From a virus, in the UHGV virus genome UHGV-1667981: a stretch of 18,367 nucleotides of DNA; one strand, written 5' to 3'. The notes below the pieces were generated by a model that saw only the letters and a program-made list of their open reading frames with translations, was not told the DNA's origin and made no database searches. Of the stretch, positions 1,807 to 14,890 are shown one piece after another. Both the position numbers and the translations under genes were made by a program. The number at the start of each line of letters is the position of its first letter. Position 1 is the stretch's first letter.

Positions 1807-2928
1807 TTACTCAAATAACTTTTTCACTTCATCAACTGTCTGAAGATAACGTTCGCCCTCAATCTCAATACCTATTGCCTGACGTCCTAACTTCAGCGCA
1901 GCTTTAATAGTTGAGCCTGATCCCATAAAGAAATCGGCAACGATATCTCCGGGGCGTGAACTACTCTTTATAATATGTTCCATCATCGCTGCAGGTTTTT
2001 CACATGGGTGCTTGCCAGGATAATATTGCACAGGAGGAAACTCCCATACATCGGTATAAGGTACATCAGCAGTAACATGAAATGGACGGCGTAAATTTTC
2101 ATACTGAGCCTTCAAATCATCATACTGCTTCTTTACTTCCTCATAATGCAATTTCAGATCGCTATAACGCTTTTCATGTTCTGAATAATCAACATTAAAA
2201 GGATATGGACACGGGACACCGAGTGAATCTGCCTTCCTGCGAAATAATTCGCATAGTTTATTAAAATCAATTAATGATGGAAGCCGCCACTGCGAATAAG
2301 AAAACCAGTGTGAACACATCTGCTTTCCTGTCGCTGAATTAATGTCTGCGGCTGATATATCTAACTGACGGCGAGCCAGCGAAAAAGCATCAATTAGTGG
2401 AGAAAAAATATTTTTTCTTAAATCTGCACATTTTGAAGCATAACCTGACTGACCTTTAGCATAACCTGACGCGCCGTAATGCTCTGCAAATAATATTCTT
2501 TCAGTAGCAGGAAAATAAGCCCTTAAACTTTCTTTATGACAACCGCGCCACATACCACTGGGTTTAGCCCAAATGATATGGTTCAGAACATTGAAACGGT
2601 CGCGAGTTAATAATTCAATTTTTGACGCAAGGCGAGAGCCGGTAAACATATACAGGCTGCCATTAGGGGCCAATATCCGCCAAAATTCTGCCAAAAATTC
2701 GTCAATCCACCCCAAAAAGTCAGCATCGCTATCCCACTGGTTATCCCATGCGTTAGCCTTTACGCCGAAGTATGGTGGGTCTGTTGCAATCAAATTGACC
2801 GAGTTATCAGGGATGGTTTTGATAAATTGCAGAGAATCTGCGCAAACGAGTTGTGCGCCATGAATATTAGTGGTTTTGAACATAGCTATTATTTTTTTGC
2901 CTGGGTAAGCTAACCCGGCGATGCGCAT
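1807..2928 (-). CDS. DNA methyltransferase, N6-adenine/N4-cytosine family (beta-class motif order)
   Basis: ORF 1807..2928(-), 373 aa. DPPY catalytic motif (IATDPPYF) near the N-terminus and AdoMet-binding FxGxG motif (DFFMGSGST) near the C-terminus. Start codon uncertain (alternative internal Met at MFKTTNIH). No adjacent restriction endonuclease gene seen, so it appears orphan. Confidence 0.85.
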   Translation of the reverse strand: MRIAGLAYPGKKIIAMFKTTNIHGAQLVCADSLQFIKTIPDNSVNLIATDPPYFGVKANAWDNQWDSDADFLGWIDEFLAEFWRILAPNGSLYMFTGSRLASKIELLTRDRFNVLNHIIWAKPSGMWRGCHKESLRAYFPATERILFAEHYGASGYAKGQSGYASKCADLRKNIFSPLIDAFSLARRQLDISAADINSATGKQMCSHWFSYSQWRLPSLIDFNKLCELFRRKADSLGVPCPYPFNVDYSEHEKRYSDLKLHYEEVKKQYDDLKAQYENLRRPFHVTADVPYTDVWEFPPVQYYPGKHPCEKPAAMMEHIIKSSSRPGDIVADFFMGSGSTIKAALKLGRQAIGIEIEGERYLQTVDEVKKLFE

Positions 2929-3018
2929 CGCGGGTGGGCTTTAGGTTCAGCCTATAGCTCTGGCATGGGTTGACCGCAGGACAAGCTGCAACTTGTCCTG
3001 CGCCCACTTTTCAGGCAC

Positions 3019-3040
3019 AAAAAAACCGCCATAAAGGCGG
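3019..3040 (-). terminator. Intrinsic terminator (minus strand): 5-bp GC stem CCGCC/GGCGG with 5-nt loop followed by U7
   Basis: Plus strand 3019-3040 is aaaaaaa-ccgcc-ataaa-ggcgg; on the minus strand this is a hairpin followed by 7 T. Lies between the small upstream minus-strand genes and the methylase-lysis block. Confidence 0.5.
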
Positions 3041-3127
3041 CTTGTTGGCTGTTGGGTACAAAAAACCCAACTTAACAAAACAATAACTAAAAACCGTCAT
3101 TTTGCCAAGCTTTTTCGTTTTTGTGCT

Positions 3128-3145
3128 GTGCGACCGTGGTCGCAC
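3128..3145. repeat. 18-bp palindrome GTGCGACC-GT-GGTCGCAC (copy 1 of 3); candidate SopB/ParB-type centromere site
   Basis: Perfect 8-bp inverted arms with 2-bp spacer; arms extend to 11 bp here (3125..3148). Same 18-mer recurs at 7507..7524 and, with 7-bp arms, at 9950..9965. Resembles the F-plasmid sopC core TGGGACC-AC-GGTCCCA as recalled. Confidence 0.5.
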
Positions 3146-3150
3146 AGCTT

Positions 3151-3378
3151 TTAGAAAGTTGCCTGCTTATATTCATCGGTCAAAGAATATCGACCAGATC
3201 CGCTACGCTTTGCAACCCCAAAACAGATCATCTGTTCGATGATAAATTCAACGGCAGCTTGACTCAAAAAACAGGCTTCGCTTAACTCTTTCAGGGAAAT
3301 GTGTGGGTATCCACGCATAACACATTCCACACTCAGGGCCGCTTCAGTCATATTTCCACGAATTTCATTAATATTCAT
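3151..3378 (-). CDS. Hypothetical small protein (75 aa)
   Basis: ORF track 3151..3378(-); no recognisable motif. Positioned upstream of the hairpin-rich control region. Confidence 0.45.
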   Translation of the reverse strand: MNINEIRGNMTEAALSVECVMRGYPHISLKELSEACFLSQAAVEFIIEQMICFGVAKRSGSGRYSLTDEYKQATF

Positions 3379-7296: not shown

Positions 7297-7524
7297 CTAT
7301 ACCCAAATTTTCTGTTGATATGTTCTGGATGGTTTTGGCGTTCTTTCTGATTCAGGTAAATGAACATAAACACAATATCCATCACCTAAAAAATCAGAAC
7401 GAACAACCAGAACTTTCTTACCACGCCGCCGATAAGTATCTGAAAGACGCTCTGCTTCATCATGCGTCATCGGCCCCTGCTTAAATGGCGTTATTTTCAT
7501 TTTCTTGTGCGACCACGGTCGCAC
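7297..7524 (-). CDS. Hypothetical small protein; start codon ambiguous (7524, 7500 or 7470)
   Basis: ORF track 7297..7524(-). The longest version overlaps the 3' end of the 7481..7801 ORF and the palindrome at 7507..7524; a shorter start at 7470 (MTHDEAERL, preceded by AGGGG) avoids the overlap. Confidence 0.3.
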   Translation of the reverse strand: MRPWSHKKMKITPFKQGPMTHDEAERLSDTYRRRGKKVLVVRSDFLGDGYCVYVHLPESERTPKPSRTYQQKIWV

Positions 7525-7801
7525 CCTCTCTGATTTCCAAGTAACGCTTAATCCAAAGATTTTCTATATGCTTATTACCTGGCTGATTTGATAAATACCA
7601 ATCGGCAATTACAGACTGCTTATTACTATCTGGTCGTGTCCTGTAACCACAAGTTGGACACCAGATAACATATTCATTTCTTACCCCCGAATACCTTAAT
7701 TCTGGCTTCGACGGTTTCCTGAACATAACTTGTTTACAAAGGCAGAATGGCACTTCCTGCCCTATGGCGTTTGATGATTTCACTGCGCTTCTCCGCCGCA
7801 T
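7481..7801 (-). CDS. Hypothetical Cys-rich protein (106 aa), possible zinc ribbon
   Basis: ORF track 7481..7801(-); FCLC...WCPTCGY cysteine pairs. C-terminal codons GCG ACC GTG GTC GCA CAA (ATVVAQ) are the 18-bp palindrome. Overlaps the upstream gene by 68 nt at its 5' end, so the start is uncertain. Confidence 0.4.
   Translation of the reverse strand: MRRRSAVKSSNAIGQEVPFCLCKQVMFRKPSKPELRYSGVRNEYVIWCPTCGYRTRPDSNKQSVIADWYLSNQPGNKHIENLWIKRYLEIREGATVVAQENENNAI
7507..7524. repeat. 18-bp palindrome GTGCGACC-AC-GGTCGCAC (copy 2 of 3, opposite orientation)
   Basis: Exact reverse complement of the 18-mer at 3128..3145. Lies at the overlap junction of two minus-strand ORFs. Confidence 0.5.
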
Positions 7802-8444
7802 TTAATAATGCAGTTCGATTTAAGCTCAGACATCGCGACTTAATTAAAAGCCAGCGTTCTTTATAATCTTGTCTCCAGCTATCAATAGATATATTCAGTA
7901 GAAAACTCAGATGCCTGTCCTGTTCTCTCTCATCAACTGCCTCAGCACACGTAAGTTCTGATTTAACCTGCTGTGCCGCGTAATAAATCAATTTCCGCAT
8001 GGCTTTTTTCGTGGAGGCCTTCATTTTTTTAAAGCCGCCCCCCGAATGAGCAACCAGAAAATCAAGCCATAACCACTGACAAACAATCACATCATTGTTG
8101 TAATCAGGCTTGCATCCGTAGCAATAATAAAGCCAGGCTGATTCCTCGTTATTCAACTGACCAATAGCCCTGCGCCAGCTGGCGCTCTGAAAATCAATAT
8201 CAGTGAGCAACATTGATGATTGTTTAAATGTTTTCCCCTGATGGAATCTAACCGGCTCAGCAGGAACGGACACTTCGTATGAGTTATCATCCCCCACACT
8301 GATTGACCGGACTGGTTTATAGTTAAACCGTCCTGACCTACCGAGACGCATCTGCTCAAGCTGGACCTCCAGAATGCCACCCTGGCGATAATGAACATCA
8401 GCCAATGCCGTAGAGACGCAGCTGCGTATATACTCAAGCTCCAC
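7734..8444 (-). CDS. Hypothetical protein (236 aa); candidate Q-like late regulator by position downstream of cro
   Basis: ORF 7734..8444(-), GTG start preceded by AAGGAG. Several Cys (YYCYGCKPDY). Function is inferred only from synteny with the N15-type immB order (cB, cro, Q) as recalled; no motif-level support. Confidence 0.5.
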   Translation of the reverse strand: MELEYIRSCVSTALADVHYRQGGILEVQLEQMRLGRSGRFNYKPVRSISVGDDNSYEVSVPAEPVRFHQGKTFKQSSMLLTDIDFQSASWRRAIGQLNNEESAWLYYCYGCKPDYNNDVIVCQWLWLDFLVAHSGGGFKKMKASTKKAMRKLIYYAAQQVKSELTCAEAVDEREQDRHLSFLLNISIDSWRQDYKERWLLIKSRCLSLNRTALLNAAEKRSEIIKRHRAGSAILPL

Positions 8445-9343: not shown

Positions 9344-9442
9344 CTTAATACGGGGTTTATTGTTTGCTGTAAATCTGGTTTAATGCAGGGCATATGTTCT
9401 GTGGGTTGACTCAGGTTACAGCAGCAGAAAAAAGACGAAAAA

Positions 9443-9471
9443 AACCCGAGTCGGCAAACTCGGGTCCTTTT
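9443..9471 (+). terminator. Intrinsic terminator downstream of the repressor gene (8-bp stem ACCCGAGT/ACTCGGGT, 6-nt loop, T-tract)
   Basis: acccgagt-cggcaa-actcgggt then ccTTTTc; preceded by an A-tract, so it could act bidirectionally. Confidence 0.6.
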
Positions 9472-9587
9472 CAGGAAGCAGCCACAACAAAGCGACGGAT
9501 TCCGTCAATCAAAGATGCGTTTATTGTGGCTGCTCCTGCGGATTTTTTCAACCCGAAAAAACATAATTCGCATGGAATGGCTAAAAA

Positions 9588-12500
9588 ATGACATTAAACG
9601 ATTTCTATGCGGATCGCTTTGGCAGCGATCCGTTCTCGCTAATTGAAGCAGCACGGGATGAACTAACCGAGCTGGCACAGATGGCTGGTATCAACTGGCC
9701 TGCCTGTTCCGACAACATCCAACTCAACCCTCGCGGGGGTGTTGAGCGTTACTCTTCATACAATAAAACATCTCCAGAAGCTCTCGAGAAGAGCCTCAAA
9801 GGACGCGTAGAAATTTACTCCCGGCTGGAACACAGCAAAGGGATTGATTATCCGTTCATTAACTTCGTCCATAAAGGCAGCGATGCTGGCTCATGGAGCG
9901 GTTTCTCCTTCCTGTTTTCTGAATATCGCCGTGAGCAACAGCGGAATAATGCGACCGTGGTCGCACAACCGGAAGAAGAACGGGCAAGAATAGAACGTCA
10001 GGCCGAAGCACGTCGTCGCCGTGAAGAACAAAAACGAATTAATGACCTGAAAAACAACCAAATGGACCATGAACGTTTGCTGGGATGGCTGGCATTTCAC
10101 AGCGCGTGGGAACATGCTCCTGCAGAAGACGGCTCGTGGCCATATGCGATTAAAAAAGGTATTCGTGACGTTTTTAATTCGTGTGATGTGCGTCGCGTGA
10201 CCAGTCACGACAGCGCAAAATGGAGCAGGGGGCCAACCACGTATATGGCTATCCCTCTGGCTCACCTGGACGGTCGTTACGATGGTCGTATTGTGGGTTG
10301 GCAGCGAATCGACAAACAAGGTGGAAAATACCAGACCAGCGCCGTAACCAGCGGCGATTTCGTCGGTGCCTGCTTTGTTATCGGTGAGCTAAAAGGGGCG
10401 CAAAACATCGCTGTTACAGAAGGTTTTGCTACTGGTGCATCCATCTGGCTTGCCACGAAAAAAGATAAACGCTTTGACGCTGTGGTTGTCGCTGTATCCG
10501 CTAACAACATGGTTCATGTTGTGGAACAACTGGTAAACATGTACCCGGCGGCAAAAATCACCTGCGCACTGGATAATGACAGGAAATCAGCTACAGAAGG
10601 AAAAGGGAATACCGGCCTGCGGACTGGCTATGAAATCTTATCGAAATTCAACGATGTCCGCTGCGTCTATCCAACTTTTGAAGACGATCCGCAAATGGAG
10701 TGCAGTGACTTCAACGACCTGCACAAACTACGTGGACTTCGTGAAACAGCACGTCAACTGTTTGCAACTGCAAACCGCCTGAAAACTGGCACTGATTTGC
10801 TATCTCTGACGCTCAACCGCCTGAAGACAATTAAGCGGGATAACCGTCGTACTTTTGCCAAAGAGCTGCTGAGAGCGGTGGATATTGGCATGCTAACCTG
10901 CCCGGTTCCTAACAGTCCGTCAGATTTATTTAACATGTTCTGCATCGTTCTGCGTGAAATGGGACTGGAAAATATCTATCGCGCTACGGTAAAAGACCAC
11001 ATTGCCCGTCGCCTGAATAAAAAGTGCCGTATTGCCCAGGCTCCGCGCTCTTTCAGCGAACGCATAACTGATCCCAATAAACGCCCTCAACATATCACCT
11101 ATAAGCGTTTTGAAACTTCGGTAATGACCGATGATGTCCTGAAGTACGTGCAATCACTACAGGGGATAGTCATCGTCCGTGCTGGTATGGGTTCCGGCAA
11201 ATCTACTGGATTGTTACGACCGTTAATGCATAGCTCAGAACGTGGTATCTCTGTTGCTCACCGTGTCTCCCTTATTGGTGGCCTGTGGGAAATGATGACA
11301 GAAGGAAAAGGTGTAAAAGCCGATATCCTGCACTATCAGGACCCTGGCTATCAGGAAATGGCTCCATACGCCAGTAAACTGACCATCTGCATAAACTCGA
11401 TTGTTAAAAACTGCTGGCAACCGTTGATGCGCCAGCACGACTATTTTGGCTTTGACGAGGCCACGCAAGGGCTACGTGCCGTTCTTTCCGGTCGGGCTAT
11501 GGAAAACCCGGTTGCTGTATTCAATACGCTAATTGACGCGCTGGCCAGAACGGAACAACACCCAATCATGGTGGATGCTGATGCGAACGATCTACTGGTT
11601 GACCTGGCTGAACTGGCTATGAAACGCCGTGAAGAACTAGGTTTACCGGCATGGCTGCAGATCCACGTAATTGAATTACCTGTTGATGTTTGCAACCGCG
11701 AAACAGGTGAGCCAATCCGGGTTTTTTATACAGAAAAAGATCGCATCATGACCGAGGTGGTGAAAGCTGTATCGGATGGCGAAAAAATCATGTTGGCCAC
11801 CGACAGCTCCACCTTTGCAGAAGATGTGACAGCCACCCTGAGAATGCATTTTCCTGGTAAGAAATTTCTGTGTGTAAACCAGAAAAACAAACCAGAGCCA
11901 GAAGTTGAAGCATTTACCAATCAACCGAAAAAGATGGTCAAAAAATACGACGGCCTGATTTATAGCCCGTCTATTTCATCCGGCGTGTCGATTGAGCAAA
12001 AACATTTTGACCGTCATTTCGGCATGTTCTGTGGTGAAGTTGTACCCAGCGACGCAGTGCAAATGCTACGCCGCGACCGTACAGCAAAAGAATTTATTAT
12101 CGGCTTTGATAAAGCTCGTGCAAAACGTGAAACTGACCCGCAAAAAATAGAACGAGCATTCGCCCAGGCATTGCTTGCTACCGCAGGTATGAACGGTGAA
12201 CTTACGGATGTCGTTTTCGATGGCGACCGTATATCAATGGGGGTGGCCAATACCGACTTTACCAGGATGAAAATTAAAGCAGCCGCAATTGAAGCGACTG
12301 CGCGTAACGACTACGCCAGCAACATGATCTGCATCATGCACAGCGACGGTTATAAGGTATCACCGCTGGCCACCGATTATGCTGCGAATGATATCGGTAA
12401 AGATCTGCGTAAAGAAGCGCGGGATATTGTGTGGGAACAGACACTGGATCTGCACCTCAATACAGAAACTCCACAAGAATCAGAGCGTGAAGAACTGCTA

Positions 12501-14637: not shown

Positions 14638-14746
14638 TGTGCGTCGTTTTGACGGTAAAGTTACTTCGCTGCGGTAAATCCCGTAGCCGGGACTCTCAAC
14701 CCCGAAATCCGAACGACGCACAACACGCGCCAGCGTGTTTTTTTGT
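14638..14746 (+). ncRNA. Candidate structured small RNA or leader (c4/CA-RNA-like) ending in an intrinsic terminator
   Basis: Long-range stem gtgcgtcgtt (14640..14649) pairs with aacgacgcac (14712..14721), enclosing about 60 nt. Followed by terminator hairpin aacacgc-gcca-gcgtgtt plus T-run (14722..14746). No credible coding ORF here. Identity as a regulatory RNA is inferred from position and structure only. Confidence 0.35.
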
Positions 14747-14844
14747 GTGTATGAGCCTGCGCATATCCGAATTATGGTGGCTCAGGTGGGGCAGCCGAAA
14801 GGCTGGCCGGTGTCGTTTGGGCCGGTGTTGAGAACCCCGCTTGG

Positions 14845-14890
14845 GCTACCACCCCATAGAGATTCTCAACTCTGGTGGTAGCACTGTTTT
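14845..14890 (+). terminator. Attenuator-like hairpin (9-bp stem GCTACCACC/GGTGGTAGC, 20-nt loop) followed by TTTT, just upstream of the antirepressor operon SD
   Basis: Loop contains TTCTCAAC, which is complementary to GTTGAGAA at 14827..14834 and is also repeated (CTCTCAAC) at 14693..14700. T-run starts 4 nt after the stem. Confidence 0.35.

Follow-up and report, generated by a model that had tools for sequence, protein, structure and literature searches.

A predicted Q-dependent late control region beside a SopB-type centromere palindrome in an N15-like telomere phage-plasmid

The intergenic spacer between the gp51 gene and a DNA methylase gene of the virus genome UHGV-1667981 is, with a probability that we put at roughly 85% from sequence comparison, the region that controls the late operon of an N15-like telomere phage-plasmid, and in it a promoter is followed by an intrinsic terminator that a Q-type antiterminator would override. 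The stretch of DNA analysed is 18,367 nucleotides long and is called the window below. The initial annotation of this spacer had suggested a possible late promoter with a terminator like tR' of phage lambda, under the control of a Q-like protein, and this suggestion is supported by homology to the corresponding regions of phages N15 and phiKO2 and by the family membership of the Q protein. The four elements that it listed (a palindrome, two hairpins and a terminator) are all present in the minus-strand order proposed for them. The reading rests on homology, element order, conservation and the Q family, and from these a start site, a pause, Q dependence and an effect of SopB are predicted. The control region itself is already known, since it is annotated in N15 and phiKO2, and the present result is a confirmation rather than a discovery. 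What is added here is the identity of the palindrome as an IR3-type SopB site, an invariant −10-like element at the start site, a corrected methylase start, and a conserved three-way junction with a bias towards the antisense strand.

The window and its relatives

In a megablast search, the whole window was 97% identical to the Escherichia phages YDC107_1 and PhiR46_1 (genus Ravinvirus) over 94–95% of its length, and it gave lower-identity matches to N15, phiKO2, and related telomere phages of Klebsiella, Enterobacter, and Yersinia. Judged by its sequence, the window is an N15-like telomere phage-plasmid, that is, a linear plasmid-prophage. The spacer with its flanks has 75% DNA identity to N15 and 73% to phiKO2. 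Among 5426 complete E. coli genomes the spacer was found in 16, where it was plasmid-borne in every case, and RefSeq has no feature annotated under the spacer region in those 16 plasmids.

Further versions of the spacer came from annotated phages, from IMG/VR contigs reached via gp51, and from contigs of viral and metagenome collections matched by DNA pattern, more than 50 distinct versions altogether. The order of elements is identical in all of them. It runs from the palindrome through the promoter, TAAGTTGGG, and the hairpin to the terminator in more than 30 distinct variants drawn from E. coli, Klebsiella, Enterobacter, and Yersinia clades. In N15, where the spacer between genes 51 and 52 includes the site IR3, and in phiKO2, the same order continues into the leader, with the methylase and lysis genes after it. 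The pattern TGGGCGC..CCCATGCC was non-specific in viral contigs and yielded no new homologue.

The predicted late promoter and start-site element

The promoter-proximal half of the spacer contains the following features, all read on the minus strand.

3109–3124, minus strand: A-rich stretch CACAAAAACGAAAAAG, directly upstream of the −35 hexamer
3103–3108, minus strand: predicted −35 hexamer TTGGCA, at the position of the annotated minus_35_signal of N15 and phiKO2
3080–3085, minus strand: predicted −10 hexamer TATTGT, 17 nt from the −35 hexamer, with a predicted start at about A3073
3066–3074, minus strand: −10-like hexamer TAAGTT plus GGG, covering −1 to +8 (TAAGTT at −1 to +5), a candidate sigma70-dependent pause element (SDPE)
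3051–3071, minus strand: 5' hairpin of the late transcript, GUUGGGU/ACCCAAC with a 7-nt loop, nt +3 to +23, present in all 32 variants
3019–3043, minus strand: intrinsic terminator analogous to tR', with stem AAGCCGCC/GGCGGTTT around a CCGCC/GGCGG core, extended over 3043–3023, and U7 at 3025–3019

In the N15 record, the gene 51–52 spacer has a minus_35 signal, a minus_10 signal, and, as the third feature at an equivalent position, a "putative rho-indep. transcription terminator", and in the phiKO2 record the equivalent features are labelled "putative late promoter" and "terminator". The pair TTGGCA-17-TATTGT is conserved among relatives, and it is this conservation, rather than the match to consensus, that makes the promoter credible at the level of sequence. 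The −10 hexamer occurs as TATTGT, TATCTT (the form in N15), TATCGT, TATCAT, TACTGT, or TAAAAT, always 5 nt ahead of the TAAGTT element. The last of these belongs to the PY54 promoter, TTGCAA-17-TAAAAT. The sequence of the 17-nt stretch between −35 and −10 varies between clades, and the A-rich stretch, in which GAAAAAG is kept in the N15 and phiKO2 clades, appears to resemble a UP element.

The second hexamer is read as TAAGTT, TATGTT, TACGTT, or TAAGCT, with T1, A2, and T6 invariant in all clades and GG(G/C) next, and its spacing from the −10 is fixed at exactly 5 nt. TAAGTT plus GGG is a candidate SDPE at which Q would load. TAAGTT was also considered as the true −10 and rejected, as it has no −35 hexamer 16–18 nt upstream, whereas TTGGCA-17-TATTGT fits. 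A constitutive sigma70 promoter would fire at about A3073, and TAAGTT plus GGG lying over the start site would recapture sigma70 and pause RNA polymerase. The pauses of lambda and phage 82 lie at +16/+17 and +25, and hexamer offsets of 6 nt (lambda) and 14 nt fit these positions, which places the predicted pause here at about +15/+16.

The lambda record gives PR' as TTGACT-17-TAAATT-tgactc-AACGATGGG, and the window reads TTGGCA-17-TATTGT-tttgt-TAAGTTGGG. The PR'-qut-tR' region of lambda and the window have in common a constitutive promoter (predicted in the window), a −10-like hexamer plus GGG at the transcript start, an intrinsic terminator ahead of late and lysis genes, and a dedicated Q protein. 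They differ in the Q family (PF06323, Q82, in the window versus the unrelated PF03589 in lambda), in the length of the terminated RNA (about 55 nt predicted in the window versus about 194 nt in lambda), and in the place of the Q gene, which is adjacent in lambda and 4.6 kb away in the window. Unlike in lambda, a ParB-type centromere site abuts the promoter in the window.

Phage 434, which has a Q82-type gene, reads TTGCAA-17-TATACT, with TATGTTG 14 nt later, a short terminator, and then ATGCCCTGA. Phages of the 82/434 type share the Q family with the window at 28% identity, and TATGTTG would be the second −10-like element of 434. The 434 terminator is followed by ATGCC(C)TGA, which resembles GTGCCTGA of the window. 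The second hexamer is offset from the −10 by 14 nt in 434 and by 5 nt in the window, so the pause here is predicted nearer the start, in a lambda-like geometry. In the window, a protein of the Q82 family thus occurs together with a second hexamer spaced as in lambda. A centromere site is missing from phage 434, and a covariance model of the three-way junction described below found no match downstream in it.

The terminator and the 5' hairpin

The minus-strand terminator, a hairpin plus U7, had been placed accurately at 3019–3040 in the initial annotation. It has an 8-bp stem and is among the four best terminator-like sites of the window, which holds 23 such sites versus 18 ± 4.4 in shuffled sequence, a difference that is not significant. 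It reads AACCGCC-loop-GGCGGTTTTTTT, and GGCGGTTTTTTT is invariant in all relatives.

The segment from the predicted +1 to the U-run (3073 to 3016, 58 nt) folds at −23.5 kcal/mol with a z-score of −3.8 against shuffles, and the whole leader (3073 to 2884) has a z-score of −4.7. The minus-strand fold of the promoter-proximal segment is the more stable one in 32 of 32 variants. In an alignment of 21 sequences, 88% of the cells of the 58-nt segment are paired, versus at most 57% when the partners are slid, and no double-sided changes occur.

The GTTGGGT/ACCCAAC hairpin that the initial annotation reported does exist, but its coordinates of 3045–3065 were off by 6 nt and are corrected here to 3051–3071. 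Changes in its 3' arm are almost all compatible with wobble pairing (21 G.U cells), and 85% of cells are paired versus at most 57% in slid controls. The 5' arm coincides with the invariant candidate SDPE TAAGTTGGG, which is why double-sided compensation is missing. The window has a perfect 7-bp stem; in N15, GUUGGG pairs with CCUGAC by way of two G.U pairs, and PY54 and two further versions (L132 and L071) retain the hairpin with its register shifted. The 5' hairpin is probably a real RNA feature of the 5' end of the late transcript, where it may act as a protective stem-loop or as part of the Q-utilisation site. The terminated RNA is predicted to be about 50–55 nt long and to carry this hairpin. 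RNAalifold also predicted that the 5' UGGG pairs at long range with ACCCA, but this pairing was rejected, as it shows no covariation and is broken in PY54.

The Q82-family antiterminator

The gene at 7734–8444, which had been put forward as a Q-like candidate, can be assigned to the Q82 family of antiterminators both by its Pfam match and by homology to the Q protein of phage 82.

7734–8444, minus strand: Q82-family antiterminator gene, 236 aa, matching PF06323 end to end (E = 9.4e-83, 277.7 bits versus a cut-off of 25)

The protein has 66% identity to Q of N15 and 28% to Q of phage 82 over 93% of its length, and the Q family of the window is common to N15 and phiKO2. A sequence search of the PDB with Q returned no solved relative. 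PF06323 is the Q82 family, one of three families of Q proteins (PMC9388147), and a Q cassette consists of a promoter, a sigma-dependent pause element, a terminator, and the late genes (PMC9388147; also bioRxiv 10.1101/651190).

Without Q, transcription from the late promoter would end at the invariant terminator (3043 to 3019). Once the Cro-Q operon is derepressed, the Q82-family protein would load on the paused complex and make the polymerase resistant to termination. The methylase gene, the lysis genes, and the genes beyond them would then be transcribed.

The SopB palindromes

The copy of an 18-bp palindrome that had been noted in the gap is there, its core lying at 3128–3145 within a longer symmetrical sequence.

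3125–3148, no strand assigned: SopB (ParB-type) centromere palindrome, GCTGTGCGACC-ac-GGTCGCACAGC, with the 18-bp core GTGCGACCNNGGTCGCAC at 3128–3145
7507–7524, no strand assigned: second SopB palindrome, equivalent to IR2 of N15, 210 nt downstream of the Q stop codon

The core at 3128–3145 is an exact match to that of the N15 sites, IR1 to IR4 of which share GTGCGACCNNGGTCGCAC (PMC7205306, Table 4). The palindrome next to the promoter reads GTGCGACCNNGGTCGCAC throughout the E. coli and Klebsiella clades. The centre of the palindrome is AC in the window and AT in N15. Other copies in the window lie at 7507–7524, at 9949–9966, and, in degenerate form, at 88–105, and the chance expectation is nil (0 matches in 200 shuffles). 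The copies, dispersed alike in phiKO2, are syntenic with those of N15: one in repA, one about 200 nt after Q, one before the late promoter, and one in the late region (9949, 7507, 3128, and 88 in the window; 33479, 35930, 41124, and 45561 in N15). N15 IR2 lies 183 nt past gene 40, which is Q, and IR3 occupies the same place as the palindrome at 3125–3148, 5 nt after gene 51. The phiKO2 record shows an 18-bp "putative plasmid partitioning site" ahead of its late promoter. The palindrome in the gap is, by its sequence and place, an N15-type SopB centromere site equivalent to IR3.

The centre of the palindrome is at about −63.5 relative to the predicted +1 (A3073) in the window and at −52.5 in PY54. 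Phages of the PY54 type (PY54 itself being locus L007, at about 1590–1610) carry another palindrome, TGGGACCATGGTCCCA, at this position, centred 11 bp, or one helical turn, nearer the promoter and its −35. That the palindrome stays beside the promoter despite a changed sequence and a one-turn shift strengthens the case for a functional coupling. With a SopB site at about −63.5 and a twin just downstream of Q, as with IR3 and IR2 of N15, the partition system would be coupled to late expression. Pairing by SopB of IR2 and IR3, the sites near Q and the late promoter, has reportedly been proposed to help Q act, and it would bring Q close to the promoter. The sopAB operon of N15 itself lies beyond telN. 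The title of a study by Ravin, Rech and Lane (2008, J Bacteriol 190:3538) names the N15 Sop system as facilitating late gene expression.

Loci of the Klebsiella phage 020009 type (L006 at about 1480–1550, and also L010 and L049–L051) carry a tandem pair of SopB palindromes ahead of the late promoter, with 47 bp from one to the other, whereas the window has a single one there.

Weighing an ordinary promoter against Q control

The spacer could instead hold the end of the gene 50–51 transcription unit and an ordinary methylase promoter, with Q playing no part and the palindrome serving partition only. The terminator lies 108 nt past the end of the gp51 reading frame, where it would terminate the gene 50–51 operon as well, the promoter match is modest, and the palindrome is a bona fide centromere-type site of a kind that is present away from promoters too. 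Against this, a promoter placed upstream of the terminator aborts its own transcripts, so that the arrangement is sensible only with antitermination, and a Q82-family gene is present. In an ordinary promoter, the invariant −10-like TAAGTTGGG at the start site would have no function, and a partition-only palindrome sits poorly with its persistence next to the promoter when both its sequence and its helical position have changed. We consider this explanation very improbable.

Control by Q has its own difficulties. The promoter matches the consensus at just 9 of 12 positions, and promoter-like sites are not enriched in the window (32 versus 30.8 expected). The terminator never varies among relatives, so covariation cannot back it. 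The Q stop codon at 7734 and the −35 at 3108 are 4.6 kb apart, unlike in the canonical cassette, in which they are adjacent; about ten genes and a divergent toxin-antitoxin pair lie between, an arrangement that is the same in N15. No conserved repeat assignable as a Q-binding element was identified in the window, and the −35/−10 spacer is poorly conserved between clades. Lastly, a conserved structure downstream of the terminator is left unexplained by the Q model.

The methylase start and the late genes

The gap had been given as 220 bp, a figure that derives from the longest open reading frame (ORF), which starts at 2928, and that we revise. The ATG at 2928 lies inside a palindromic hairpin (P4, below) and has no counterpart in the clades of phiKO2 and PY54. 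All relatives keep the ATG at 2883, which is also the annotated start in YDC107_1, and with this conserved start the spacer extends over 2884–3150, or 267 bp.

1807–2883, minus strand: DNA N6/N4 methylase (PF01555, E = 1e-46), the first late gene, with its start codon at 2883–2881

The start context CTATG or CCATG is kept in all clades. No Shine-Dalgarno sequence precedes the methylase start (2884–2900, minus strand) in any clade; an A-rich run, AAAAAAAUAAUAGCUAUG, stands before the start codon. The late-type genes downstream are the methylase, a holin, a lysozyme, and an Rz-type spanin. The leader was considered as coding sequence and rejected, since indels between clades break every reading frame.

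The annotated start of N15 gene 52 (NC_001901) lies some 230 nt further downstream than the ATG common to all relatives (2849 versus 3084 in locus L001), and its RefSeq protein of 284 aa is probably truncated at the N terminus. In the Yersinia phage vB_YenS-P840, ORF61 (L008, 1365–1532) is a "hypothetical protein" laid over the conserved non-coding leader from the late terminator to the methylase, and is probably a spurious ORF call.

A strong terminator-like site on the minus strand at 1771–1792, between methylase and holin, is annotated in N15 and phiKO2 too, and would be a second barrier for the Q-modified polymerase.

A conserved three-way junction downstream of the terminator

The hairpin with an 11-bp stem that had been reported at 2975–3002 is correct, with 14-nt arms of 93% complementarity. 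It lies outside the promoter-terminator module and is part of a separate conserved structure past the terminator.

2934–3007, plus strand tentatively favoured: three-way junction of 74 nt, made of closing stem P1 (GUGGGC/GCCCAC), P3, and P2, the last being the hairpin at 2975–3002
about 2914–2934, no strand assigned: P4, a palindromic hairpin (CCCGGCGAUGCGCAUCGCGGG) whose TGCGC centre is conserved and which has no strand preference
2906–2911, plus strand: hexamer TAAGCT (TAGGCT in other clades), candidate extended −10 about 25 nt before P1

The core of the junction measures 72–77 nt across versions, its conservation exceeds that of the flanking genes, and P3 is imperfect, with about 12 bp. P4 was missing from the elements listed initially. 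Its arms are wholly different between clades, CCCGCGA/UCGCGGG in one and UUGCUG/CAGCAA in another. The hairpins at 2975–3002 and 2914–2934 were considered as extra intrinsic terminators and rejected, since on the minus strand neither is followed by a U-tract.

Covariation was tested on 24 distinct versions of the core with 500 shuffles, in an alignment that was fitted to a covariance model and hence leans towards that model. In this alignment 89.8% of cells are paired versus 79.6% in shuffles (reached by 0 of 500), and 15 of 30 pairs have changed on both sides (reached by 4 of 500). The covariation score is 0.293 versus 0.130 in shuffles, again reached by none of the 500, and slid controls attain at most 50% pairing. 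In P2, 9 of 11 pairs are compensated. The covariance model finds one junction per genome, with no second copies, and none in the lambda or 434 loci. Neither strand of 2800–3250 matched an Rfam family at the gathering threshold; the best sub-threshold matches, with E up to 10, were AgrB (27.3 bits versus 40) and ctRNA_pGA1 (22.9 versus 45).

One possibility is that the hairpins at 2934–3007, perhaps with 2914–2934, belong to a structured plus-strand RNA. Its transcription would converge with that from the late promoter and would stop at or near the terminator region that the two share. Such an RNA would be fully complementary to nt +67 to +140 of a late transcript that has escaped the terminator. 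In the plasmid prophage it could counteract leaky expression of the methylase and lysis genes, or act by transcriptional interference, and it would supplement control by Q rather than replace it. In each of the 24 distinct cores the plus strand gives the more stable fold, by 4.6–13.2 kcal/mol and with the same three-way junction each time; for the window core the values are −42.2 kcal/mol (z = −5.6) on the plus strand versus −35.0 (z = −4.25) on the minus strand. G.U pairs number 70 in the minimum free energy folds of the plus strand versus 14 in those of the minus strand. Every half-compensated pair of P2 is a G.U on the plus strand and a C.A mismatch on the minus strand, a pattern that such positions show consistently across the core. 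The covariation is strong as well, with 15 double-sided pairs and a score that no shuffle reaches. The uniform minus-strand preference of the promoter-proximal segment serves as an internal control, and this flip of the preferred strand at the terminator is the pattern expected of two convergent transcription units that share a terminator region. On the plus strand, TGnTAGGCT, the form of an extended −10, is kept in six clades.

Other observations speak against a plus-strand transcript. No convincing −35 was found for it, and TGGGTAAGCT of the E. coli clade is without the canonical TGn spacing. The variable base of TARGCT (R/Y) covaries with UGGGCYUU, which suggests that the hexamer may be transcribed as part of a helix rather than act as a promoter element. 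The U-run after P1 is unconserved, and the reversed terminator is followed merely by UU(N)U. P1 plus UUUU as a plus-strand terminator is likewise weakened, the U-run being missing in the Klebsiella clade and in version L132. The plus strand is 56% G+T, and by the shuffle means about 2.5 kcal/mol of the strand bias is explained. The covariation alignment is fitted to its model, and Rfam offers no family for it. On balance the plus-strand interpretation is tentative and falls short of an even chance, and for a functional plus-strand RNA the chance is about one in three. It is a little more doubtful still that N15-like telomere phages encode a previously undescribed structured RNA of about 75–130 nt opposite the late operon, with its core at 2934–3007. 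If they do, such an RNA could be a fail-safe against leaky methylase and lysis expression or could modulate Q-dependent read-through.

In the main alternative, the helices would work on the minus strand, within the late mRNA itself, whose 5' leader they would structure. Such a leader might confer stability on the long late transcript, take part in its processing, or regulate how the methylase, which has no Shine-Dalgarno sequence, is translated. Transcription of the region from the minus strand is certain once Q acts, the element is always ahead of the methylase ATG, and the minus-strand fold is far more stable than shuffles, both for the core and for the leader as a whole. The lack of a strand preference in P4 is also in favour of a leader. 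Selection on the minus strand should, however, leave minus-strand G.U intermediates, and nearly all of them are on the plus strand. A leader function is possible but less likely than not.

It is improbable that the conserved palindromic elements act as DNA, either as protein sites, for example for gp51, or as a single-strand initiation site. P4 has a conserved palindromic centre TGCGCA, hairpins of single-stranded DNA tolerate G.T wobble too, and the phiKO2 record describes gp51, encoded next to them, as a winged-helix protein. The arms, however, covary with complete change of sequence, which is typical of nucleic acid that folds, rather than of a site that a protein recognises. An initiation site is disfavoured by fork orientation: judging from the gene map, a leftward fork from the repA origin would make the minus strand the lagging-strand template, whereas the structure favours the plus strand.

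The junction can also be compared with the P1 c4 / N15 CA type of RNA (Rfam RF01695), as both fold into a compact Y in which a closing stem bears two hairpins. That stem has 6 bp in the junction and 17 bp in the C4-like RNA that the window itself holds at 14770–14856. The two show no similarity in sequence or by covariance model, and no C4 match was found at 2800–3250 even with E up to 10.

Neighbouring genes and other features

3151–3378, minus strand: gp51, 75 aa, always encoded directly upstream of the late promoter

The gp51 protein is labelled a winged helix-turn-helix protein in phiKO2 and PhiH1 repressor-like in KpLi5, and Pfam gives a sub-threshold PCI match only. It might be a regulator of the adjoining region. 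Two gp51 homologues from IMG/VR (L060 and L061, 54% identity) are without the promoter-terminator-leader module downstream, so the gene can occur in another context. A gp51 search of the GTDB species-representative genomes gave only 2 loci, both apparent contaminants in unrelated assemblies. These assemblies (L009 and L010) are of the alphaproteobacterial KCTC strains Novosphingobium arvoryzae and Limoniibacter endophyticus, and their contigs resemble a Klebsiella-type N15-like phage, which probably reflects assembly contamination.

Elsewhere in the window, a strong terminator-like site on the minus strand at 9436–9473 has a 17-bp stem between the repressor region and repA. The plus strand at 14668–14856 gives two Rfam matches at gathering level, isrK (RF01394, 54.9 bits, 14668–14743) and C4 antisense RNA (RF01695, 71.8 bits, 14770–14856). 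This is the anti-immunity RNA region of the N15 immA type, and its C4-like RNA is Y-shaped. A search for tRNA and tmRNA genes in the window found none.

Implications for N15-like phage-plasmids

As read here, the control region would be the switch that keeps lysis and virion genes silent during life as a low-copy linear plasmid. It would also be a natural case of a plasmid partition site wired to a phage antitermination promoter. If the three-way junction proves to be a real antisense RNA, it would bring a new layer of regulation to the late genes of phage-plasmids that form a widespread family in Klebsiella and E. coli.

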